Origin: a virus
Virus record (IMG/VR): IMGVR_UViG_3300010331_000009
Length of the DNA: 33,833 nt
Reading direction: 5' to 3' (one strand)
A model generated the notes under the pieces. The model made no database searches. It was not told where the DNA came from and worked only from the letters and a program-made list of their open reading frames with translations. The position numbers were made by a program, and so were the translations under genes. Below, piece by piece: positions 211 through 13,796 of the stretch (the first letter of the stretch is position 1; every line of letters begins with the position of its first letter).

Positions 211-1404
211 TCACGTCTCGGTCCCGAAGGGCACGTCCATCGTCGCGTCGAAGCCGGCCGCCGCCGCCGCATCGTCCATGGGGATCACGTGGGCGTAGTA
301 ATCCAGGGTGATCTGGATGGTCTTGTGACGCAGGCGTTTGGACACGATATGCACCGGCACGCGCTCCCGCAGCAGAAGCGTCGCATGCGTGTGACGGAGC
401 GAGTGGAAGGTCGCTCCGCGCGTCGACAAGGCCCCTGCATCCTCGAGCATCGCGACGGCCGAGCTGACGGCGTAGGACACCTTCGAAGGTCTCATCGGCT
501 GGCCGTGTCCCCCGCAGAAGACCAGGTCGCCGTCCTCCCACGCTTCGCCGAGGAACTCACGCCTTGCGTCCTGCTCCACACGGTGGCAGCGCAGCATGTC
601 ACCGGTAGTCGATCCGAACGACACGACACCTCGCGAGCTCGCGGTCTTGGCGTACGGGACGACGCTCACGCCCGCGTTCGTCTCGATAGCCTGGCTGAAC
701 ACGGCCACACTCCCCCCGCCCTCAACACCAAGGGCGACATGGCGCCACCTCATCCCCAGCACCTCGCCCAAGCGCAGCCCTGTGTAGAGCGACAGTTGCG
801 CGGGTCGCTCCAAGCGAGTGTCCTGCAACGCCCCCAGGAGCATGCTGGCCTCATCACGCTCGAACCATTGGGCGTCGGGTGCCTTGGGCGTCGGGTGGGC
901 CGCCTTGGCCGCCGGATTGATGGTGATGATCGGAGGAACCTGATCGCACGCGTCGTCGAGCGCCTGCTTCAGCACCTTATGCCGCTTGTGTACAGTCTCA
1001 GGAGAGACCAGTCGGCCTAGTCTCGTGACCTCGTTACCGAGACACCACTCGTAGTAGCCCTCGATATCGCGTTTCGTCAGGTCCTGCAACCGCATCGATC
1101 CGAGGCGGGCGGCGAAGGAGTCCAGCAACGACCGGTACCGGCTCAGCGTGGCCGCGCGAGCGTTCCCCATCACGCGACGCTTGGAGATCCATGTGTCGAA
1201 CCACTCACTGACCGTGATGTCGGCCGCCACCAGGTAGGCGCCGCGAGTCTGCGAGTCGATGATGCCGGCACGTACGCGCTTGGCCTCGGGCAGCTCGCAA
1301 TGGACCACGCGCGATCGGCGCTTCTTCGGTGACGCCTCGACCCACCAGAGCCGGTAGTGTCGCCTGCCGAGCTTCTCGATGCCCGGCGCCACAGTGTGGC
1401 CCAC
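211..1404 (-). CDS. int: Tyrosine integrase (site-specific recombinase)
   Basis: ORF track 211..1497 (-). The C-terminal motifs HSLRHTHATLLL and ITLDYYAHV (catalytic Tyr) fit a tyrosine recombinase. The ATG at 1497 would overlap the repressor gene by 92 nt, so GTG 1404 (1 nt after the repressor stop) or GTG 1392 is the more likely start. Confidence 0.9.
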   Translation of the reverse strand: MGHTVAPGIEKLGRRHYRLWWVEASPKKRRSRVVHCELPEAKRVRAGIIDSQTRGAYLVAADITVSEWFDTWISKRRVMGNARAATLSRYRSLLDSFAARLGSMRLQDLTKRDIEGYYEWCLGNEVTRLGRLVSPETVHKRHKVLKQALDDACDQVPPIITINPAAKAAHPTPKAPDAQWFERDEASMLLGALQDTRLERPAQLSLYTGLRLGEVLGMRWRHVALGVEGGGSVAVFSQAIETNAGVSVVPYAKTASSRGVVSFGSTTGDMLRCHRVEQDARREFLGEAWEDGDLVFCGGHGQPMRPSKVSYAVSSAVAMLEDAGALSTRGATFHSLRHTHATLLLRERVPVHIVSKRLRHKTIQITLDYYAHVIPMDDAAAAAGFDATMDVPFGTET

Positions 1405-1405
1405 G

Positions 1406-2035
1406 CTAGAACCTGATTCGATCAGGGAACGTCGCCCATACCACCTTGCCGATGACGCGTACACGGCCGGCTTGGGCCCCGTCGCTGTCAAGCGCACAAT
1501 CCCGGTGCCGCGGGTTCGTGCTTTCGGGATGCAGAATCATCGTGTCACCGGCGAACAAGACCCTCTTGATGGTCGCGTCATCACCATTCACGTTGACCAC
1601 GGCGACGTCTCCGCTACGAACCTCTTCCCTTGGATCGACCAGCACGAGCATGCCGGCCGGAAACAGCCGGTCCATGGAATCCCCGGTCACAGCCAGGAAG
1701 AACGCTTCCGGATGATTGCCCAGCACGGTCGGCGATACATAGGTCCGGTCGCCATCACGCGGTATTGCCTCGACCGCCGCCCCCGCGGAGATGTTCCCGA
1801 TGACCGGCGCCGTCGAGTCACCGGGTTCGATCCCTGTGAGTGATCGATAGGAGACACCGAGAGCGTTGGCGATCTCCTTCAGCTTACCTACGCTCGGATT
1901 CCATTCGGCGTTCTTCTCCCACTGCGATACAGCCTGGGGAGTCTTGCCGAGTTTCTCCGCAAGCTGCGCTTGAGTGAGACCCATCGCCTTGCGAACCTTC
2001 AGAAGATTCTGCGAAATCTCGTTCTCGCTTCCCAT
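1406..2035 (-). CDS. CI/LexA-like repressor (XRE HTH plus S24 autopeptidase domain)
   Basis: N-terminal HTH LTQAQLAEKLGKTPQAVSQWEKN. C-terminal S24 pattern GDSMDRLFPAGMLVLVDP ... ATIKRV (Ser/Lys dyad context). The gene is divergent from the cro-like gene. Confidence 0.88.
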   Translation of the reverse strand: MGSENEISQNLLKVRKAMGLTQAQLAEKLGKTPQAVSQWEKNAEWNPSVGKLKEIANALGVSYRSLTGIEPGDSTAPVIGNISAGAAVEAIPRDGDRTYVSPTVLGNHPEAFFLAVTGDSMDRLFPAGMLVLVDPREEVRSGDVAVVNVNGDDATIKRVLFAGDTMILHPESTNPRHRDCALDSDGAQAGRVRVIGKVVWATFPDRIRF

Positions 2036-2109: not shown

Positions 2110-2127
2110 CAAAGTATTGCATTTGTT
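2108..2127. promoter_or_regulatory. Candidate operator inverted repeat between the divergent -35 elements
   Basis: AACAAA (2108-2113), 8-nt spacer gtattgca, TTTGTT (2122-2127). It overlaps both predicted -35 hexamers. Confidence 0.4.
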
Positions 2128-2145
2128 ATCCACTGGACGTAGACT
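2117..2145 (+). promoter_or_regulatory. Candidate rightward early (cro-side) promoter
   Basis: TTGCAT (2117-2122), a 17-nt spacer, then TAGACT (2140-2145). The spacer contains TTATCCACT (2126-2134), an 8/9 match to the DnaA box TTATCCACA. Confidence 0.5.
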
Positions 2146-2192: not shown

Positions 2193-2426
2193 ATGAATCT
2201 CTCGAAGCTGCGGTCGACTAGGGCAAGTCAGGGCCTTTCTCAGTCCGATCTCGCCCGAAGCGTAGGAGTCTCTCTCGCTACCTACCAGCGTATCGAGAGC
2301 GACCCGGACCGCACGAGCATTCGCCGGGCTAGGTTAATCGCCGCGAATCTCGGCGTCAATGTCCAGGACCTCTTCTTTGGCCAGGATCCATGCACCGAGC
2401 AAGACGCCAAGTGCAGAGTCTCATGA
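2193..2426 (+). CDS. Cro-like XRE-family HTH regulator
   Basis: HTH LSQSDLARSVGVSLATYQRIESDP. AGGAG (2182-2186) lies 6 nt before ATG 2193; the track start is TTG 2187. Confidence 0.85.
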   Translation: MNLSKLRSTRASQGLSQSDLARSVGVSLATYQRIESDPDRTSIRRARLIAANLGVNVQDLFFGQDPCTEQDAKCRVS

Positions 2427-2644
2427 GCACCACCATCGTGCTCCTCGGCCAGAGAGTCAGACCGCTCGAGTCCATCGCACGAGTGGGCTCTGTGCTGGGC
2501 CTCACTCGGTCCACCGCCTTCAAGATCGCCGAGGATCGGTGGCCGCTGGATGGCGACAAAGGCAGCCGAAAGGTGATCGTCCCAGCACTCGCTAAGCAGC
2601 TGGGAATCCCCTACCGGTGCGTCGTCGACGAGGTCGACAAGTGA
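2423..2644 (+). CDS. Small HTH DNA-binding protein (excisionase/AlpA-like candidate)
   Basis: ATGA overlap with the cro stop (ATG 2423). HTH-like SIARVGSVLGLTRSTAFKIAEDRWPL. Small size (73 aa). Confidence 0.6.
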   Translation: MSTTIVLLGQRVRPLESIARVGSVLGLTRSTAFKIAEDRWPLDGDKGSRKVIVPALAKQLGIPYRCVVDEVDK

Positions 2645-3144
2645 GCCGTCGGCGCTACGTGTCCACCGACATCAGCTTGGACGCGGCGCTCAACCGCGTG
2701 GCGAAGCACTCCGACTTCGCCGCCCTGCTGTACTCGTGGATGATCCCGCACGCGACAGACGACGCGACCATCACCGGCGATCCCGAGACGCTCCTCATGG
2801 AGGTGTTTCCCGGGCGGCGCGACAAGGACATCCATGACGTCGAGAAAGCCCTCGAACTGATCGAGAGCGAAGGCCTCTTCGAGATGTGGTCCCGAATCAC
2901 CCAGACGATCTACTTCTGGCCCGAGACGTTCTACCGCTACCAGACCTACATCAAGCCGAGCGATCGCCGCGTAGAAGAGGCAAACGCCGCAGAACGCCGC
3001 AGAACGCCGAAGAACACCGCTTCTCTTTCACCTTCACTTTCTCTTTCACATACACATTCACTTTCACAATCAAGGTCTGTCCCTGTGGAAACTGTGGATT
3101 CTGTGGATAACTCGCCCAAAACACTGTCGAAGGCGGTTCGTTGA
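2641..3144 (+). CDS. Putative replication initiator/organizer protein with the origin repeats in its 3' end
   Basis: GTGA overlap start at 2641. The 3' third of the gene is built from tandem DNA repeats and DnaA boxes (2981-3110), as in the origin-within-initiator-gene arrangement of lambda O. The function is inferred from context only. Confidence 0.55.
   Translation: MSRRRYVSTDISLDAALNRVAKHSDFAALLYSWMIPHATDDATITGDPETLLMEVFPGRRDKDIHDVEKALELIESEGLFEMWSRITQTIYFWPETFYRYQTYIKPSDRRVEEANAAERRRTPKNTASLSPSLSLSHTHSLSQSRSVPVETVDSVDNSPKTLSKAVR
2981..3020 (+). repeat. 4 x 10-bp tandem repeat (cAAACGCCGC/AGAACGCCGC/AGAACGCCGA/AGAACACCGC)
   Basis: Read directly from the sequence. The period is one helical turn. 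Confidence 0.9.
3027..3067 (+). repeat. TTCAC pentamer cluster (5 copies; three as CTTTCAC)
   Basis: TTCAC at 3027, 3033, 3045, 3057 and 3063, in a locally AT-rich stretch. Confidence 0.85.
3083..3110 (+). repeat. 3 x CTGTGGA at 9-bp spacing; the last copy is a perfect reverse DnaA box TGTGGATAA
   Basis: CTGTGGA at 3083, 3092 and 3101. TGTGGATAA at 3102-3110. Confidence 0.9.
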
Positions 3145-3614
3145 TGCCTAAAACACCATCAAGCCCAGAAGTTATCCACAGCCTCAAGACCCGCGCAGCG
3201 TCACGCAGAGCACTGACCACGGTCGACAACGAACTCCGGACGCACCTCACCTCCGCGATCGCACTGCTGAGCAAGAGCAACCTGATCGACGCCATCCGGC
3301 TCCCGGACGTGTGGGCACTCGAGATCGAGACCCGCGACGGCGTCCGCGTCCGCTTCGAGTCCGGTCAGTCGAGCCCGACCTCCAATCCGGCGGCAACGTA
3401 TACCGCTCAGAAGCCCGTGCCCAAGCGCCTCGAGCAGACCATCGCGCAGCAGACACGCCTAGCCAAGGAACTCAAGGCCTCCGGGATCAGCGAGGGTACC
3501 TACGCCAGCATCCTGCACACGCACGGCGTCACGAACTCCCTCGAGCTCGACCGCCCGACGATGACCTCCGTCATCACCGCGATCGGCGTCGCCGGCAAGC
3601 AGGTCACGGCATGA
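3144..3614 (+). CDS. Hypothetical early protein
   Basis: ORF track 3141..3614. ATG 3144 overlaps the upstream TGA by 1 nt. Third codon positions are G/C-rich. No motif recognised. Confidence 0.7.
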   Translation: MPKTPSSPEVIHSLKTRAASRRALTTVDNELRTHLTSAIALLSKSNLIDAIRLPDVWALEIETRDGVRVRFESGQSSPTSNPAATYTAQKPVPKRLEQTIAQQTRLAKELKASGISEGTYASILHTHGVTNSLELDRPTMTSVITAIGVAGKQVTA

Positions 3615-4024
3615 GAGTCGAGATCCAGACACCGCTGCCCCCCACCGTCAACCACTACTACCGCAACGCCGCGGTACCGGTGCGAAACGCCACCACCGGC
3701 AAGATCGGCATCGTGCGCAAGCGCGTGCTCTCCGACCGCGCAGAGGCATGGATGCAGGGATCCGCACTCATGGCCAGGTGCGCGCTGCGCGTGGCCGGCT
3801 GGGTCATCCCCGAGGCGGGCGACAAGGTCGTCGTCGAGATCCGCGTCGCCTGGCCCGACAACCGATGCCGCGACATGTCCAACCTCCACAAGGCCATTGC
3901 CGACGTCCTCGAAGGCATCGCCTACGTCGACGACCGCTACGCGCTGCTCCGTGACATGGACTATCGCGTCAGTCCCCGAAACCCCGGGCTCTTCCTCACC
4001 GTCCGCCCGTTCGCAAACGACTGA
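3611..4024 (+). CDS. rusA: RusA-family Holliday junction resolvase
   Basis: ATGA overlap start at 3611. N-terminal PPTVNHYY and later R.RDMSNLHKAIADVLEGIAYVDD fit the RusA pattern. The longer track ORF (from 3311) is an off-frame extension. Confidence 0.85.
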   Translation: MRVEIQTPLPPTVNHYYRNAAVPVRNATTGKIGIVRKRVLSDRAEAWMQGSALMARCALRVAGWVIPEAGDKVVVEIRVAWPDNRCRDMSNLHKAIADVLEGIAYVDDRYALLRDMDYRVSPRNPGLFLTVRPFAND

Positions 4025-4069: not shown

Positions 4070-4750
4070 GTGAACAAGCTCTCGACCCACCACCGTAAGG
4101 CAGTGCTCGTCGCTGTGAACATCACGCTCGGCCTCGCGCTCGTCGCATCCGTCTTCTTCGCGACGTGGGCGAACGGCTACGGATCGGGACGAGCCTTCGG
4201 GCTGGCCAAGGCAGACACCGCCCACGCCCTGGAGCTGCGCACGCAACGCTCCGCGGCCGAAGCGGTCGCAGAACTGCGCGCCCTCGAGGCGTCGCGCACG
4301 ATCGCCGGACTGGCCGCAGAGGCCAAAGCGGTCGCAGAGGACAACGAGGAGCTCAAGGCGAGGCTGGCGGCGGTCAGGCCGGTGGTCACGAAGACTGCCA
4401 CGACAGCGGCACACAAGAAGAGCACCGCCAAGTCGGGCTTCCAGAAGGCGGGCACGTCGTCGGTCAAGGCCCTCATACGCCGCGTGTGCGCCCTCCGCCA
4501 CCTGAGTGCGGCAGACACCGCCGCGATGCTCGAACTGGCGCGCCGCGAGAGCACGACGGGCCAGAACTCCAGAGCCTATGCCCGAGGACGCGAGTGTGTC
4601 GGACTCTTCCAGCTGGACTCGGACAAGGGCTCGTACGCCAACCGGTGCGACAACCTCTGGTCGGCCGATCACGCGATCTCGTACTGCAGGTCCCGCTACG
4701 GATCCCCCAGCAAGGCACTCGCCGACCACAAAGCGAAAGGCTGGTACTAG
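4070..4750 (+). CDS. Membrane-anchored protein with a C-terminal lytic-transglycosylase (SLT)-like domain
   Basis: N-terminal TM segment (VLVAVNITLGLALVASVFFATW), an Ala/Glu-rich coiled-coil stretch, then ELARRESTTGQNS...GLFQLD, which resembles the E-S...GLMQ SLT motifs. Confidence 0.7.
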   Translation: MNKLSTHHRKAVLVAVNITLGLALVASVFFATWANGYGSGRAFGLAKADTAHALELRTQRSAAEAVAELRALEASRTIAGLAAEAKAVAEDNEELKARLAAVRPVVTKTATTAAHKKSTAKSGFQKAGTSSVKALIRRVCALRHLSAADTAAMLELARRESTTGQNSRAYARGRECVGLFQLDSDKGSYANRCDNLWSADHAISYCRSRYGSPSKALADHKAKGWY

Positions 4751-5299: not shown

Positions 5300-5626
5300 A
5301 TGAACACCGCAGTCCTCATCCTCATCAGCGCGGCAGGCGTCATCGCGCTCGTGAACCTCGTCAAGTCGTTCGGCGTGACCGGTAAGTGGTCCGCGCTGGC
5401 GGCACTGGTCATCGGCATCGCCCTGAACCTCGCGGCATGGAAGGCCGGCGCCGCGTTCGCAGGCGCCGACTGGTTCACCGTCGCGGCCACCGGCGCGCTC
5501 GTCGGACTCGGCGCGAGCGGCCTCTACGACACCACCTCCCCGACGACCATGTCCTACGCCGCCGCCGAACTCGACCAGGTTTCGTTCGCGGAATCATACG
5601 ACGAGGCCAACCGACCCGTCAGATAA
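5300..5626 (+). CDS. Multi-pass membrane protein, holin-like
   Basis: GGAGAAG (5291-5297) precedes ATG 5300. Has 2-3 hydrophobic segments (AVLILISAAGVIALVNLV; WSALAALVIGIALNLAAW; WFTVAATGALVGLGASGL). The pattern K..GV.GKW..LAALV.G resembles small Gram-positive phage holins. Confidence 0.6.
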   Translation: MNTAVLILISAAGVIALVNLVKSFGVTGKWSALAALVIGIALNLAAWKAGAAFAGADWFTVAATGALVGLGASGLYDTTSPTTMSYAAAELDQVSFAESYDEANRPVR

Positions 5627-5693: not shown

Positions 5694-8120
5694 ATGGAAC
5701 TCAGGACAGTGAAGCTCGACCTCATCGATCCGAACCCGGACCAGCCGAGGTTGACGCTCCGGACCATCGAAGAGCTTGCCAAGGAGATCACCGCAGTCGG
5801 CTACATCATCCACCCGCCGCTGCTCATCGAAGCCGGTGACCGATTCACCACGATAGCCGGACATCGTCGCATCGAGGCGTGGAAGCTGCTCGGCAACACC
5901 GAGATCGTCGTGCTGGTCAGAGAAGGCTTGGACAAGGCAGCGCAGATCAGCGCCATCATGGCCGAGAACACGTCGAGGGACGACCTCTCCGCGATCGAGA
6001 AGGCCCGCGGATACCAGACGATGTTCGCCACCGGCGTCGAGAAGAAGAAGGCCGCCCGGATCGTCGGACTCGACGAGATGCCCAAGGCCTCCACCATCGC
6101 CACGCTCGTCGACGCCAGCGAGAAGGTCGCCAACGACTCCTACGTGTTCGAGGCCACACTCGACGAGGCAGCCGGCCTGATGGAGTTCGAAGCCGACCCC
6201 GAGGCGTACAGCTCGCTCCTGGGCAACGTCGGTCGCGGGTTCGCCCACGACCTCGAGCGCCGTCGTCAGAACCGTGACCGCGCAGAGAAGCGCGCCGCCT
6301 CGAGAGCCGAGCTCAGGGCCGCCGGCACGAAGATCCACACGGAGAGCCAGCGCAACTGGAGCTGGGCGACGCTCAAGGAAGCCAAGACCACGGCCGAAGC
6401 GCACGCCTCGTGCCCCGGCCACATCGCCGTGGTCGGCTACTCGGGAGACATCGACTACTACTGCACCAAGCCGGCGGAGCACGGACTGGGGACTTCCAGG
6501 ACCGGCGAAGTGAAGGACAAGGCCGCCGAGAAGGCCAAGCGGGAGAACCGCGCCGCCCACAGGGCAGCGACCGCCGTGCGGCTGCGCTTCCTCTCCGGAC
6601 TGCTGCTGACCAAGCGCGACAAGGCGGACTCCGCCATCGTGCTCTGGGCGCTCGCCTACACCTGGAGCCACGGAGTGTTCGCAGGCCCGCAGAGCTGCAA
6701 GGTCCTCGACGAGATCGGCCTCGCGGCAGGCTCCAAGCCCACATCCCCGCTCAACGGCGTGGTCGCACTCGCGATCGCCGCGATGGAGAAGCGCCTCGCA
6801 GACCACAATAAGTTCGACGCCATGGTGCACGCCCTGGCGGACGGGGGCGACGCACCGCTGGACGTCATCACGTACTTCGACGCGCTCACGCACAACCTCT
6901 ACGACCTCGCCGAGTGCGAAGACTCCTTCATCGACGCATGCCTCGCCAAGCGCGCGGACAAGAGCACGAAGCGGATCGACGTCGGAACACCGCTCACGGC
7001 CGAGCGGTGCGCAGCCATCGCCAACCCGACCGACCACGCGCACATCTCGGCAGAGGCCTTCGTCGACGCGATCGAGCCGTTCCTCGACGAGATCGGCGTG
7101 CCTCGCGACGACGGGACCGACGAGTGCGAGAACACCGACGCCACGCCCCTCGTGGAAGAGGGTGCCCACGAAGGGGAAATCCGCACTCCGAGCACGAACG
7201 TCGTCAACCTCGCAGACGCCGTCGCACAGGCCGAAGAGTCGTGGACCACGCCCGAGGTGGGCGGCAACATCATCGCGCTCTCGTCTCCCGACCTCTCGAG
7301 GCTCTGGAAGCGCGCTCTGGACGAAGGCACCGCCAAGCTCAACACCAAGGGCGTAGGCGCAGAGCACTGGGACATCCACCTCACGCTCACCATCGCCGAC
7401 GTGAGCACCGAAGCTGCCACGGTCCGCTTCATCGTCGCAGGGACGCCGGGCAAGTTCCCGACCGACGCGATCGCCATCGCCAACAAGCTCGCCATCGTCG
7501 GCGGCTGCACGTTCGACGCTCCCACGCAGGGACTCGGCGGCCTCTGGAGCTTCGAGGCCCTGCTGGAAGCCGCCGGCGCGGACGCCGATATCGCAGAGTC
7601 CACGGTCATTCCCAACCAGGTCGCCTGCTACCGCAGTAGCAAGGCGTGCAAGTACGGCACCGCCGACCAGCTCTCCGACTGTGATTTCAGCTGCCCCGGC
7701 GGAATCAGCCCATACCCACACTGGCTGCTGGCGAATGACCAACCCGCCGAGGTGGGCGGCATCGAGCCCATCCAGGGTGACACGGAGAACCCCTTCGCCG
7801 ACGCGCGGATCTCCAAGGAGTTCGCCTCCGACGACGCCGATCGCATGCTGGTAGCCGTGTCCGAGCCCTACACGACGGCTCCGTGCATGCACTGGCACGG
7901 CGAGATCGTCTACAGCGTCGAGAAGCGCATGGATCTCGACTGCACGCCGAAACTGCGGTTCGTCGACTTCACCTTCAACGCCCGCCGCCCCGTCGGCGCT
8001 GCGCTCACAGACGCTCGCCTCTTCGCGACCAGGTACGCCGAAGCGCACAACCTGAAGTCGACCATGATCGAGCCCGACGACAGCAACACCATCACCCTGA
8101 CGTTCGTGGCGGTGGTGTAG
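5694..8120 (+). CDS. Large (808 aa) protein with an N-terminal ParB/sulfiredoxin-like domain; C-terminal ~700 aa unassigned
   Basis: AGGAG upstream of ATG 5694. The N-terminus LIDPNPDQPR ... TIAGHRRIEAWKLLG ... ENTSRDDLSAIEKARGY matches ParB N-domain boxes, including GxxRxxA. The remainder is acidic with no motif recognised. Confidence 0.8.
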   Translation: MELRTVKLDLIDPNPDQPRLTLRTIEELAKEITAVGYIIHPPLLIEAGDRFTTIAGHRRIEAWKLLGNTEIVVLVREGLDKAAQISAIMAENTSRDDLSAIEKARGYQTMFATGVEKKKAARIVGLDEMPKASTIATLVDASEKVANDSYVFEATLDEAAGLMEFEADPEAYSSLLGNVGRGFAHDLERRRQNRDRAEKRAASRAELRAAGTKIHTESQRNWSWATLKEAKTTAEAHASCPGHIAVVGYSGDIDYYCTKPAEHGLGTSRTGEVKDKAAEKAKRENRAAHRAATAVRLRFLSGLLLTKRDKADSAIVLWALAYTWSHGVFAGPQSCKVLDEIGLAAGSKPTSPLNGVVALAIAAMEKRLADHNKFDAMVHALADGGDAPLDVITYFDALTHNLYDLAECEDSFIDACLAKRADKSTKRIDVGTPLTAERCAAIANPTDHAHISAEAFVDAIEPFLDEIGVPRDDGTDECENTDATPLVEEGAHEGEIRTPSTNVVNLADAVAQAEESWTTPEVGGNIIALSSPDLSRLWKRALDEGTAKLNTKGVGAEHWDIHLTLTIADVSTEAATVRFIVAGTPGKFPTDAIAIANKLAIVGGCTFDAPTQGLGGLWSFEALLEAAGADADIAESTVIPNQVACYRSSKACKYGTADQLSDCDFSCPGGISPYPHWLLANDQPAEVGGIEPIQGDTENPFADARISKEFASDDADRMLVAVSEPYTTAPCMHWHGEIVYSVEKRMDLDCTPKLRFVDFTFNARRPVGAALTDARLFATRYAEAHNLKSTMIEPDDSNTITLTFVAVV

Positions 8121-11365: not shown

Positions 11366-11745
11366 CGATGACAACCTCCACACAGCAGTACGCGGCCCCC
11401 GGCTCGCTGATAGCAGGCAAGAGCGACACCCACGTCGTCGTTGAAGGCCGGCGGCGTGGGAGAAGGGCCGACCACGTCTACGTCGACTCCGCCGCGCTCA
11501 AGCGCGCCGTCGAAGAGCGCATAAGGGATCCCGACAAGCGCGTACACGCCAGCAACGAGGCATTCGGCACGCCATCGCCCAACGCCGGACTGCAGATCAT
11601 CGCCGACATGGCGGGCGTCACCTCACGTCGTATCAACCGACTCATGAGCGGAGACACGCTCAGGACCGACATCTACGCCCTGGACGCGATCGCGGTCACC
11701 CTCGGCGTCCACGTCTCCCGCCTGCTGCTCGAGGAGGCGTCGTGA
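11362..11745 (+). CDS. HTH-containing hypothetical protein
   Basis: GTGA overlap at 11362 (alternative starts GTG 11359 or ATG 11368). The C-terminal LQIIADMAGVTSRRINRLMSG ... is HTH-like. Confidence 0.6.
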   Translation: MTMTTSTQQYAAPGSLIAGKSDTHVVVEGRRRGRRADHVYVDSAALKRAVEERIRDPDKRVHASNEAFGTPSPNAGLQIIADMAGVTSRRINRLMSGDTLRTDIYALDAIAVTLGVHVSRLLLEEAS

Positions 11746-12782
11746 CCCGCGCCATCCAGGCCAACGACTTCTTCGACCGCATCGCAGAGCGTCAGCAGAC
11801 AGCACTAGGCTCCGTAGTCCTGGGCAACGACCGGGGAAGCGAACACACCTGCCCCGTCTGCCACAAGCCCGAGTACATGGCAGGACGCCACGGCTACTGC
11901 TCGAGCTGCAAGCCCAAGCCACCCGAACCCAAGCCCGCCAAGCGACTGACCAGGAACAGGAGAGCAGATCGCATGCCCACTCGAGAGTACAAGCTGTGGA
12001 GCAAGGCCGACGTCAAGATGCTCAGGGACAACGCACATCTCGGCGGCCACGCGGTCGCCGAACTCCTCGGCCGCTCGACCGACACCGTCAAGGGCTTCGC
12101 GGGGTCCAACCACATCTCGCTGAGGAAGCGGCCCGCACCCGAAGCGCCCACGACCGAGGCGAGCGCCGACATCACAACCACGACCACACCCAACGACACG
12201 CTCGCGTTCACGCTCCCGGCCGAGCCGTTCCCGGACGCACCCACGCCCGACAGCGAGGCGGGCGACACGACCACGCTCACCGCACCGCGACTGGCCATGC
12301 CCACGATCAGCAGCGTCTTCCCGCACACGCCCAAGGTCGACCCCAACGCCATCGACTACTCCGAAGCAGACCCGCTCGCCCCGTACCGCACGAACGGCCA
12401 CGCGGGCGGCACCATCGCTCTTCCACCAGAAACGAAGCAGGAGAAGGACTACAGGCTCAACAGGTGGCCCGTAGAGACCACAACGTCACTGCCTGCGGCT
12501 GGCGAGGTGGGCGGCAGTCACGAGTGCGACACGGTCTGTGACGAGTGCCCGGCGGCCTGCCTATCGGAGTTCCTCGGTGTGCGCTCCAGACGTACCGTGG
12601 TGACCCTCAAGAGCACTCCGACGTCCATCGTTGCCGACCACCGCATCGAGCTCATCGAGACCCGCCTGCGCCTCATCTGCGCCACGCTCGAAGCCTCGTC
12701 GTTCCGTGTGCCGGCAAGCGCCCGTGAGTCCATCGAGGGCAACGTAGACCGTATCCGCGAGCTCATCGCCGAGGCAGTCTAG
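11742..12782 (+). CDS. Hypothetical DNA-binding candidate (zinc ribbon plus Myb/SANT-like HTH segment)
   Basis: GTGA overlap start. Contains CPVCH...CSSC, and LWSKADVKMLRDNAHLGGHAVAELLGRSTDTVKGFA. A low-complexity Thr/Pro linker follows. Confidence 0.65.
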   Translation: MTRAIQANDFFDRIAERQQTALGSVVLGNDRGSEHTCPVCHKPEYMAGRHGYCSSCKPKPPEPKPAKRLTRNRRADRMPTREYKLWSKADVKMLRDNAHLGGHAVAELLGRSTDTVKGFAGSNHISLRKRPAPEAPTTEASADITTTTTPNDTLAFTLPAEPFPDAPTPDSEAGDTTTLTAPRLAMPTISSVFPHTPKVDPNAIDYSEADPLAPYRTNGHAGGTIALPPETKQEKDYRLNRWPVETTTSLPAAGEVGGSHECDTVCDECPAACLSEFLGVRSRRTVVTLKSTPTSIVADHRIELIETRLRLICATLEASSFRVPASARESIEGNVDRIRELIAEAV

Positions 12783-13147: not shown

Positions 13148-13311
13148 AGAGCAGGCCCAAGACGTGCGGAGAGTGCGAGTGCTGGTTCAAGGACGGGTCG
13201 TGCCTGGTGTTCCGCGACATCGAGACCAAGGCAGGATCGAGAGCATGCAAAGAGGGCGTCAAGAAGCAGGGGCCGCAAGTCGATCGCGCAGAACAGGGGA
13301 CGTTGCTGTGA
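13144..13311 (+). CDS. Small Cys-rich protein (55 aa), not in the ORF track
   Basis: Hand-translated: VKSRPKTCGECECWFKDGSCLVFRDIETKAGSRACKEGVKKQGPQVDRAEQGTLL. It has GTGA overlaps at both ends (13144 and 13308) and fills an otherwise unexplained gap. Confidence 0.5.
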   Translation: MKSRPKTCGECECWFKDGSCLVFRDIETKAGSRACKEGVKKQGPQVDRAEQGTLL

Positions 13312-13796
13312 GTGATTGGGGAACGCTCGACCTCCGGACCCTAAGAACGATGCACAAGAACGGCGCAACCCCAGAGCAGATACACGAGGCGATCACCACG
13401 CATTCTCCCAGGGCCGTGCGCAAGAAGGGGTACGCGCTGGGGCTGTCATGGCGCCTCGCGGGCAGCAGGCGCGGCCTGGTGATCGGGCAGCCACGCAACG
13501 TCTCACTCGTCTCAGATGACAAGACGTCGACGCTGCGGGACCTGATGATCGCGGGCAAGGTCAAGTCATGCGTCGTGGTCGCTCGTCTCGCCCTGGCTGC
13601 ACGTGGCGCGGAGATATGCCCCATGTGCAGCCGCAGGCCGGTCACCGTCGAGCGCACTGGCCTGTGCGTCGTGTGTCACAAGGGAGTGCTCATCGAGATC
13701 CAGACCGAGCAGCTCGCCGCCATCGAGGCGCACAAGATCCAGCAGGTCGTCTGGCAACAGAAGTCCCGATTGAAGAAGAGAGAGCTGGAGAAATGA
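13308..13796 (+). CDS. Hypothetical DNA-binding candidate (Myb/SANT-like HTH segment plus C-terminal zinc ribbon)
   Basis: GTGA overlap start at 13308 (within track ORF 13164..13796). Contains WGTLDLRTLRTMHKNGATPEQIHEAI...RAVRKKGYALGLSWR, and CPMC....CVVCH. Confidence 0.65.
   Translation: MSDWGTLDLRTLRTMHKNGATPEQIHEAITTHSPRAVRKKGYALGLSWRLAGSRRGLVIGQPRNVSLVSDDKTSTLRDLMIAGKVKSCVVVARLALAARGAEICPMCSRRPVTVERTGLCVVCHKGVLIEIQTEQLAAIEAHKIQQVVWQQKSRLKKRELEK

Follow-up and report, generated by a model that had tools for sequence, protein, structure and literature searches.

Where the replication of an uncultured phage begins is almost never mapped. The question is raised here by a 33,833-nt stretch of viral DNA (IMG/VR record IMGVR_UViG_3300010331_000009; hereafter the window, meaning the whole stretch that was analyzed; G+C content, 64.6%) that opens with a prophage early region and in which a set of repeat arrays and DnaA boxes straddles the TGATG stop/start overlap of two genes, gene A (2641..3144) and gene B (3144..3614). 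The set offers a concrete and testable candidate with single-base predictions, since we consider it probable, from the sequence features described below, that positions 2981-3181 are the phage origin, at which an organizer protein encoded by gene A would occupy iterons, host DnaA would occupy the boxes, the tract lying between them would melt, and the host replisome would be loaded. Taken alone, the proposal that the region is a replication origin is very likely, and the involvement of DnaA is, on balance, the better bet. The phage is most likely temperate and actinobacterial (the host-side label is that of an uncultured Actinomycetota metagenome-assembled genome (MAG), at the phylum level), with its origin within the DNA that encodes the disordered tail of the gene A product.

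Three contiguous tandem arrays were delimited by Tandem Repeats Finder (TRF) at 2983-3020, 3021-3068, and 3083-3112, the sole such place in the window. The first one (2981..3020, plus strand) consists of four direct repeats of 10 bp in helical phase, (C/A)A(A/G)AAC(G/A)CCG(C/A), which are putative iterons for the N-domain of the gene A product; its limits according to TRF (2983-3020, period 10, 3.8 copies, 89% matches) correct slightly those of the original prediction, which had announced four kinds of repeat and two perfect inverted DnaA boxes, all of them present. The array is followed by a pyrimidine-strand, AT-rich tract of TCNCYT hexamers (3021..3080, plus strand; repeat unit of 6/18 bp) that encodes the peptide SLSPSLSLSHTHSLSQS and is the putative DNA unwinding element (DUE). 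Within this tract, TTCAC copies start at 3027, 3033, 3045, 3057, and 3063, and CTTTCAC is present at 3025, 3043, and 3061, with no further copy on either strand of the window. The top strand of 3021-3080 is 73% pyrimidine and, as had been claimed, the tract is unusually AT-rich: no other 60-mer of the window is as rich in A+T (G+C fraction of 0.367 versus 0.646 overall), although at a scale of 41 nt it ties with the intergenic region between the cI-like and Cro-like genes (cI/cro).

On the other side of the tract, CTGTGGA is repeated with a period of 9 bp at 3083, 3092, and 3101, and a single inverted copy is found at 3175. When the segment 3083..3112 is read on the minus strand, it resolves into three abutting DnaA-box-like 9-mers, GTTTCCACA, GAATCCACA, and the perfect box TTATCCACA (3102-3110), with CTGTGGATAAC as the conserved core. 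The second perfect box, TTATCCACA at 3172-3180, lies on the plus strand inside the 5' end of gene B, in the inverted-repeat arm 3170..3181. The perfect boxes TGTGGATAA (3102-3110) and TTATCCACA (3172-3180) are the only ones in the window, where 0.02 would be expected, and none of 100 shuffled sequences contained two or more. Each of them forms the core of one arm in a perfect 12-bp inverted repeat, CTGTGGATAACT at 3101-3112 and AGTTATCCACAG at 3170-3181, with 57 nt between the arms. The whole set lies across the junction of genes A and B, as the original prediction had it.

The gene that houses the arrays points to replication initiation as well. The product of gene A (167 amino acids, plus strand) gave a weak match to phrog_1408, annotated as "replication initiation protein" (E=1.7e-3). 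AlphaFold2, run on the family alignment, predicted a winged-helix N-domain (residues ~1-110; predicted local distance difference test, pLDDT, above 95 for the blocks covering residues 11-100 and 92 for residues 101-110), followed by a tail (residues 111-167) that is encoded by the repeat arrays and is predicted to be disordered (pLDDT of ~50-69). The best matches of this model in a Foldseek search of BFVD were annotated as "Replisome organizer" (E=5e-6 to 3.5e-4); a fold search of the PDB returned generic winged-helix proteins only (Fur/PerR and cullin WHB, E>0.1), and sequence searches of the PDB with genes A and B and two weakly suggestive early open reading frames (ORFs) returned nothing usable. 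The homologues of gene A (n=58) mostly have 220-290 residues and hold ~125 N-terminal residues in common, after which the C-terminal domains diverge, PF07261 (DnaD-like) or PF09524 being present in 9 of 53 aligned homologues. A domain scan of the SPP1 replisome organizer G38P identified PF09524 as its C-domain; a comparison of the family profile with G38P by hhalign gave a probability of 2.7%, i.e. no detectable homology of the N-domain of the family. For gene A and 53 family members, PF09681 (Phage_rep_org_N) was absent among the returned Pfam matches, and no Pfam match to the Rep families (RepA/RepE/TrfA) was obtained. In relatives, the gene is located directly upstream of a G39P_N-like loader candidate (L064) or of a DnaB helicase gene (L065); the window lacks such adjacent genes, and gene A is followed there by the orphan gene B and by a RusA gene (3614..4024, from profile scans). 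Taken together, the profile match, the predicted fold, and the gene order identify gene A as a predicted origin-binding initiator of the replisome-organizer type, with a distinct N-domain family, that is truncated to the N-domain plus a tail. The idea that an origin-like anatomy resides inside an initiator gene, as in lambda gene O, is supported, also by the conservation of the repeats that is described below.

The 10-bp repeats and the pyrimidine tract are found throughout this family. The DNA located 3' of the N-domain was extracted from 27 distinct lineages with G+C contents of 40-71% that belong to several phyla and include MAGs labelled Coriobacteriia, Thermomicrobiales, Actinomycetes, and Ruminiclostridium as well as a cultured Moorella phage. 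The best autocorrelation period was 10 or 20 bp in 24 of the 27 lineages, which showed 3-8 direct repeats with a family consensus of roughly C-R-S-C-G-M-R-R-A-A, and the array always abuts a pyrimidine-strand TCNCYT tract encoding SLSPSLSPS. Because selection on the peptide cannot produce a period indivisible by 3, the 10-bp repeats should be a DNA-level element, and the conserved protein motif ERRKTPxN corresponds to these repeats read through successive frames. The codons of the tract were also distinctive: those ending in A or T account family-wide for 80% of the tract versus 27% of the N-domain of the same genes, the serine codons TCT/TCA for 149 of 203 in the tract versus 32 of 149 in the N-domain, and in the window A or T is the last base of each of the 15 codons scored in the SLSPSLSLSHTHSLS core (3022-3066), versus 9% of the codons in the N-domain of gene A. 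The 10-bp period and the A/T-ending codons of the tract suggest that selection acts on the DNA rather than on the peptide, and a codon choice that runs against genomic usage and is kept from 40 to 71% G+C argues for a DNA-level function of the linker repeats. This is the family-wide conservation at the DNA level that would be expected for iterons and an unwinding element, and we favor these assignments for the 10-bp array and the tract, respectively. The N-domain is the likely binder, since it is the sole part of the protein that covaries with both arrays, the C-domains being different or absent.

The DnaA boxes show a more restricted distribution. A perfect TGTGGATAA box was found in 6 of the 11 lineages of the high-GC subclade (window, L053, L057, L058, L059, and L060), each time in the same strand orientation and at 16-60 bp from the tract on its 3' side, and the full CTGTGGATAAC 11-mer was present in five of them (window, L057, L058, where it occurs twice, L059, and L060). 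The window and L057 each contain three abutting 9-mers of which the last is perfect, and L053 shows the same layout with a G instead of a C in the 5' flank of its perfect box (GTGTGGATAAC). Two perfect boxes separated by 18 bp are present in L058 and a single one in L059 and L060, in these last two at a mid-gene position. The initiators of the box-bearing lineages are 49-73% identical, and the linker DNA after the tract could not be aligned except for the island formed by the box. Moreover, the box is always encoded by the codons xxT-GTG-GAT-AAC, a choice whose probability is ~0.0024 per box given the peptide and the local codon usage. All these data argue strongly for a clade-specific DnaA-box element under strong selection. 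Because the box-bearing contigs share no phage gene besides gene A, a host factor is the likely box binder. In L061, a lineage with a long form of the protein that contains a DnaD domain (57% G+C), the sequence AGTGGACAA was observed at positions 560-568, in the place taken by TGTGGATAA in the subclade; read on the opposite strand it is TTGTCCACT, which agrees at 8 of 9 positions with TTGTCCACA, the mycobacterial and streptomycete DnaA-box consensus.

The inverted second box is present in this phage lineage only (window, L051, L052, and both repeat units of L068) and is absent from the other box-bearing relatives. The L068 units result from a perfect 973-bp tandem duplication of 2801..3773 that was found in the same prophage in other metagenomes, at L068:5191-7136 (a 130,598-nt contig) and reportedly also on a contig of 259,928 nt. 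The duplicated unit starts within gene A, of which it includes the 3' two-thirds, and extends over the four arrays, the two DnaA boxes, and gene B into the first 160 nt of RusA; its junction lies at the microhomology CTCATGG and creates a chimeric ORF, P0003. The 6.3 kb that follow the duplication in L068 are identical to the window. Such natural variants therefore contain the putative origin module twice.

Pfam and PHROG scans of the early ORFs up to 13.8 kb and of ten larger late ORFs, together with a tblastn search for the terminase, identified RusA, a ParB_N-domain protein, HNH nucleases, terminase (whose matches were only ~26% identical), portal, protease, capsid, and tail genes, and no recognizable helicase, primase, polymerase, or loader among the scanned ORFs. 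The claim that the phage encodes no replication enzymes is supported in this sense, but it has to be qualified, since the phage encodes its own initiator and several early ORFs are without assignment. The following sequence of events can be proposed. After induction, the winged-helix N-domain of the gene A product would bind the four phased 10-bp iterons (2981-3020), and the adjacent 60-bp AT-rich pyrimidine tract (3021-3080) would melt; host DnaA would bind the tandem cluster at 3083-3112, whose perfect box points at the tract as R1 does at the DUE, and additionally the inverted box at 3172-3180, and helicase loading and the rest of the replisome would be provided by the host via DnaA. The supply of helicase loading by the host is suggested by the lack, in the gene A product, of the C-domain that goes with a phage loader or helicase in relatives, together with the lack of a recognizable phage helicase, loader, or primase. 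Nevertheless, because the phage encodes an initiator whose cognate sites are most likely the 10-bp repeats, DnaA would act as a helper rather than as the sole recruiter. The view of the array as a DnaA recruiter, put forward in the original prediction, is thus retained for the first box cluster and narrowed by a second box unique to this lineage and by distant family members that manage without boxes. In a wider scenario, which is possible but falls somewhat short of an even chance, an actinobacterial phage clade would have grafted an oriC-like DnaA-box module, oriented from DUE to R1 and with an R4-like inverted partner in this phage, onto the internal origin of the organizer; the organizer would have lost the C-domain by which it recruits a helicase, the phage would have neither helicase nor loader, initiation would consequently proceed as a hand-off from the winged-helix initiator to DnaA, and the organizer family would carry in several phyla an "origin code" (10-bp iterons plus the TCNCYT tract) from which origins could be predicted from sequence.

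A number of observations weigh against an origin served jointly by the organizer and DnaA. Five of the 11 subclade lineages have no perfect box (L054, L061, L064, L065, and L066), and the distant members of the family, which do have iterons and the CT tract, lack a DnaA box at up to one mismatch, with 0 matches in the linker zone of 26 lineages (a set from which the window, L053, and L054 were excluded). The box was therefore rejected as a family-wide feature, and DnaA cannot be essential to the basic mechanism of the family. Three boxes abutting at a 9-bp period are an unusual spacing for a DnaA array. In addition, the boxes match the universal/E. coli consensus, and the host is an uncultured Actinomycetota MAG whose own consensus may differ; many high-GC actinobacteria prefer the DnaA box TTGTCCACA, of which the window has zero occurrences. 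The notion that the DnaA box replaces a phage helicase or loader was also discarded, since no clean correlation was found: L060 has a box and a loader-like gene, and L054 and L066 have neither. Around 10 early ORFs have no function assigned, which makes the lack of replication enzymes an absence of evidence, and two of the ORFs gave weak matches. One of them (11742..12782, 346 amino acids) weakly matches phrog_323, "transcriptional regulator, D5-like" (E=2e-7), and the other (13164..13796, 210 amino acids) has a sub-threshold match to PF22448, RepB_primase_C (E=3e-4, 21 bits versus a cutoff of 26.1). Finally, the window stops within the tail genes, so that the prophage is seen in part. The match of 13164..13796 is the only primase-related hint in the window.

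Some of these observations would be accommodated if the region is an origin in which the CTGTGGATAAC repeats bind a phage protein, either the gene B product or the gene A N-domain acting with a further specificity, the likeness to a DnaA box being coincidence or mimicry. The abutting 9-bp period is iteron-like, the conserved core of 11-13 bp is longer than a 9-bp box, the uncultured Actinomycetota host may follow another box consensus, and the distant relatives manage without a DnaA box. However, the N-domain is conserved family-wide and the motif is restricted to one subclade, while the other box-bearing contigs lack gene B, which is present in L067 without boxes. Furthermore, the motif matches the universal high-affinity box at 9 of 9 positions and has the C...C flanks of E. 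coli R1 and R4, and the chance that an arbitrary conserved 9-mer equals a DnaA box is ~1e-5 or less. We therefore regard binding by a phage protein as unlikely.

Regulatory boxes, by which DnaA bound at the junction of genes A and B would throttle read-through transcription or couple phage replication to the DnaA-ATP status of the host, or by which DnaA would be titrated away from oriC in a datA-like manner, have a smaller probability still. In favor of such a role, the stop of gene A and the start of gene B lie between the two inverted boxes, the duplicated-module variants would double titration, and a third, 8/9 DnaA-box-like site, TTATCCACT, is located at 2126..2134 (plus strand) in the AT-rich cI/cro divergent promoter region. 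This site and the two boxes contain the three TTATCCAC 8-mers of the window, which are indeed the only ones, as predicted; the number expected from base composition is ~0.4 rather than about one. The 2126 site by itself is within chance expectation and its significance is uncertain; its surroundings showed neither repeats nor operator-like symmetry, and the cI/cro regulatory region of the window is common to no diverged relative. Against regulation, the relatives keep a single box in a fixed orientation by the AT-rich tract and not a pair around the junction, the box of L059 and L060 is located mid-gene, and two to four boxes are few for titration.

It might also be argued that the prophage is replication-defective, gene A being what is left of a longer gene and the repeats the traces of an origin no longer in use, given that gene A ends at 167 amino acids, without the C-terminal domain of most homologues, and that no helicase or loader is recognizable. 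Nevertheless, short forms of 167-194 amino acids with different tails exist in at least six diverged lineages (window, L053, L054, L057, L058, and L066), and identical copies of gene A, flanked by intact ORFs, were found on at least seven contigs that come from three or more metagenome samples, which indicates that the truncation is not a one-off pseudogene. The TGATG overlap of genes A and B is as in coupled genes, and the synonymous sites of the repeats appear to be under ongoing purifying selection. A defective prophage is thus improbable. The repeats as a slippage by-product of a low-complexity Ser/Pro/Leu linker, with boxes that reflect a conserved peptide PVDNS, are more improbable again: ERRKTPxN, SLSPSLS, and VDN(S/P) are certainly conserved in the protein alignment and the tail is predicted to be disordered, but a 10-bp period is beyond the reach of peptide selection, and the strongly anti-genomic codons of tract and boxes are conserved over the whole 40-71% G+C range. 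Lastly, the suggestion that the phage ParB-like protein recognizes the CTTTCAC copies as half-parS sites, which would serve it as a centromere or for loading, was rejected and is scarcely credible, since, although a ParB_N-domain protein is encoded 2.5 kb downstream (5694..8120) and CTTTCAC is one base away from the GTTTCAC half-site, no parS-like palindrome (16-bp parS, TGTTNCACGTGAAACA) exists anywhere in the window at up to three mismatches, the copies are all direct and none inverted, the tract is family-wide and includes contigs with no ParB gene called in the stretch seen, and the 808-residue protein matches the ParB N-domain only.

The proposed origin, with iterons for the organizer and boxes for DnaA, can be compared with three kinds of known system. 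The lambda ori consists of four iterons and an AT-rich region within gene O (PMC3349717), and SPP1 oriL of direct repeats together with an AT-rich DUE inside gene 38 (PMC6316719). As in both of them, the candidate origin is placed within its own initiator gene, where the linker that follows the N-terminal DNA-binding domain is encoded, and has direct repeats followed by an AT-rich unwinding region; the relatives of gene A moreover keep the SPP1 order of organizer, loader, and DnaB helicase (genes 38-39-40), and some of them carry PF09524, the C-terminal Pfam domain of G38P. In contrast to these phages, the iterons of the window are 10-bp and abutting, not 18-19-bp and spaced, the unwinding element is a pyrimidine-strand hexamer repeat, the protein lacks a C-domain and has an N-domain without detectable homology to G38P, no phage loader or helicase is recognizable, and DnaA boxes are added. 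Rep-plus-DnaA origins, on the other hand, are established in P1, F, pSC101, and RK2; for these it matters how the boxes are placed and oriented, and they recruit the host helicase through DnaA, Rep, or both (PMC4980987). The window resembles P1 oriR, F, pSC101, and RK2 oriV in its predicted winged-helix initiator, in its tandem iterons beside an AT-rich DUE, and in its DnaA boxes with a fixed position and orientation (in six lineages); it differs in an initiator that is not of the RepA/RepE/TrfA type, in an origin within coding sequence, and in a replicon that is an integrating temperate phage of an uncultured actinobacterium. The proposed origin joins two known designs, that within an initiator gene and that of the Rep-plus-DnaA kind, and is in this respect a new variation.

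The boxes also invite a comparison with chromosomal origins. In E. coli oriC, the DUE is followed by CCCTGTGGATAAC (R1) and, on the far side, by GAGTTATCCACA (R4); the box of the window has the same orientation and flanks (CTGTGGATAAC), and its inverted perfect box lies on the far side in an R4-like manner, although the two boxes are 70 bp apart versus 189 bp from R1 to R4. Tandem box sets whose best match is farthest from the unwinding region are common in chromosomal origins (PMC8287927), and the tandem set of the window has its best box farthest from the tract. The basal unwinding system of such origins comprises at least three consecutive DnaA-trios (NAN, consensus 3'-GAT-5') within ~16 bp of a box (PMC8287927). 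No canonical run of trios was found in any of the three registers of 3021-3082, where the central A occurs in alternate triplets only (a CAC/TTT pattern); a loose (NAN)x3 was met once, at 3071-3079, and is indistinguishable from chance. Unlike a chromosomal oriC, the region has no dnaA/dnaN linkage, lies in a prophage early region (integrase, cI-like, Cro-like, and RusA genes), and has a phage initiator and iterons on the other side of the DUE.

If this interpretation holds, some actinobacterial phages would depend on host DnaA, which would tie their replication to the initiation status of the host. DNA-level selection is legible here with unusual clarity inside a coding region, as a 10-bp period, anti-genomic codons, and an exact 11-mer island in otherwise unalignable DNA. 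The iteron and CT-tract signature could mark origins throughout the gene A family (~50 loci retrieved from viral and genome contig collections), and replicons obtained by means of it could be of use in genetic tools for Actinomycetota that are uncultured or hard to manipulate.

Gene B (156 amino acids, plus strand) encodes an orphan protein. It had zero matches in Pfam, PHROG, and the PDB; its homologues form only 4 clusters among 1.8 billion representatives, and no relatives were found in viral contigs. Its AlphaFold2 model is weak (pLDDT of 68), and gave no significant structural match, a three-helix bundle like the C-terminal part of Red-beta reaching only E=1.4. At L067:1729-3426, a copy of gene B with 74% identity lies directly after an unrelated initiator gene (306 amino acids; phrog_2447, E=8e-13), with no DnaA boxes nearby; after it comes the transglycosylase-like gene that the window has as well. 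This arrangement suggests that gene B moves between replication modules as a unit, and an accessory role in replication is possible. That gene B is a C-domain split off from the organizer was considered and rejected, in view of its lack of similarity to the C-domains of the long forms or to the downstream genes of relatives, its 4 clusters, and the different initiator in L067. A phrog_323-type gene may be a recurrent partner of the gene A replication module: like the window protein 11742..12782, a gene directly downstream of gene A in L053 (6582-6995) matches phrog_323 (E=3.5e-8), and the gene directly downstream of gene A in L057 (682-1122) is 48% identical to it.

The remainder of the early region is that of a prophage. 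Profile scans identified an integrase (211..1497) and a cI-like S24 repressor (1406..2035) on the minus strand and a Cro-like helix-turn-helix protein (2193..2426) on the plus strand, and a small ORF (2390..2644) gave a weak, sub-threshold helix-turn-helix match. The segment 1400-5000 showed zero nucleotide similarity to cultured phages by blastn, tblastn searches with the portal and the integrase pointed to no host, and scans for tRNAs, Rfam families, promoters and terminators, and operator repeats were all empty. In the 808-residue ParB-like protein (5694..8120), the match to the ParB N-domain covers the first ~90 residues (up to ~240 with PHROG), and the remaining 570 or more residues are without a family match. 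Finally, a transglycosylase-like gene (4070-4750; phrog_3310, E=2e-9) and a holin-like gene (5300-5626; phrog_1299, E=1e-15) were observed early in the window, between RusA and the ParB-like gene and far from the usual place of a lysis cassette.

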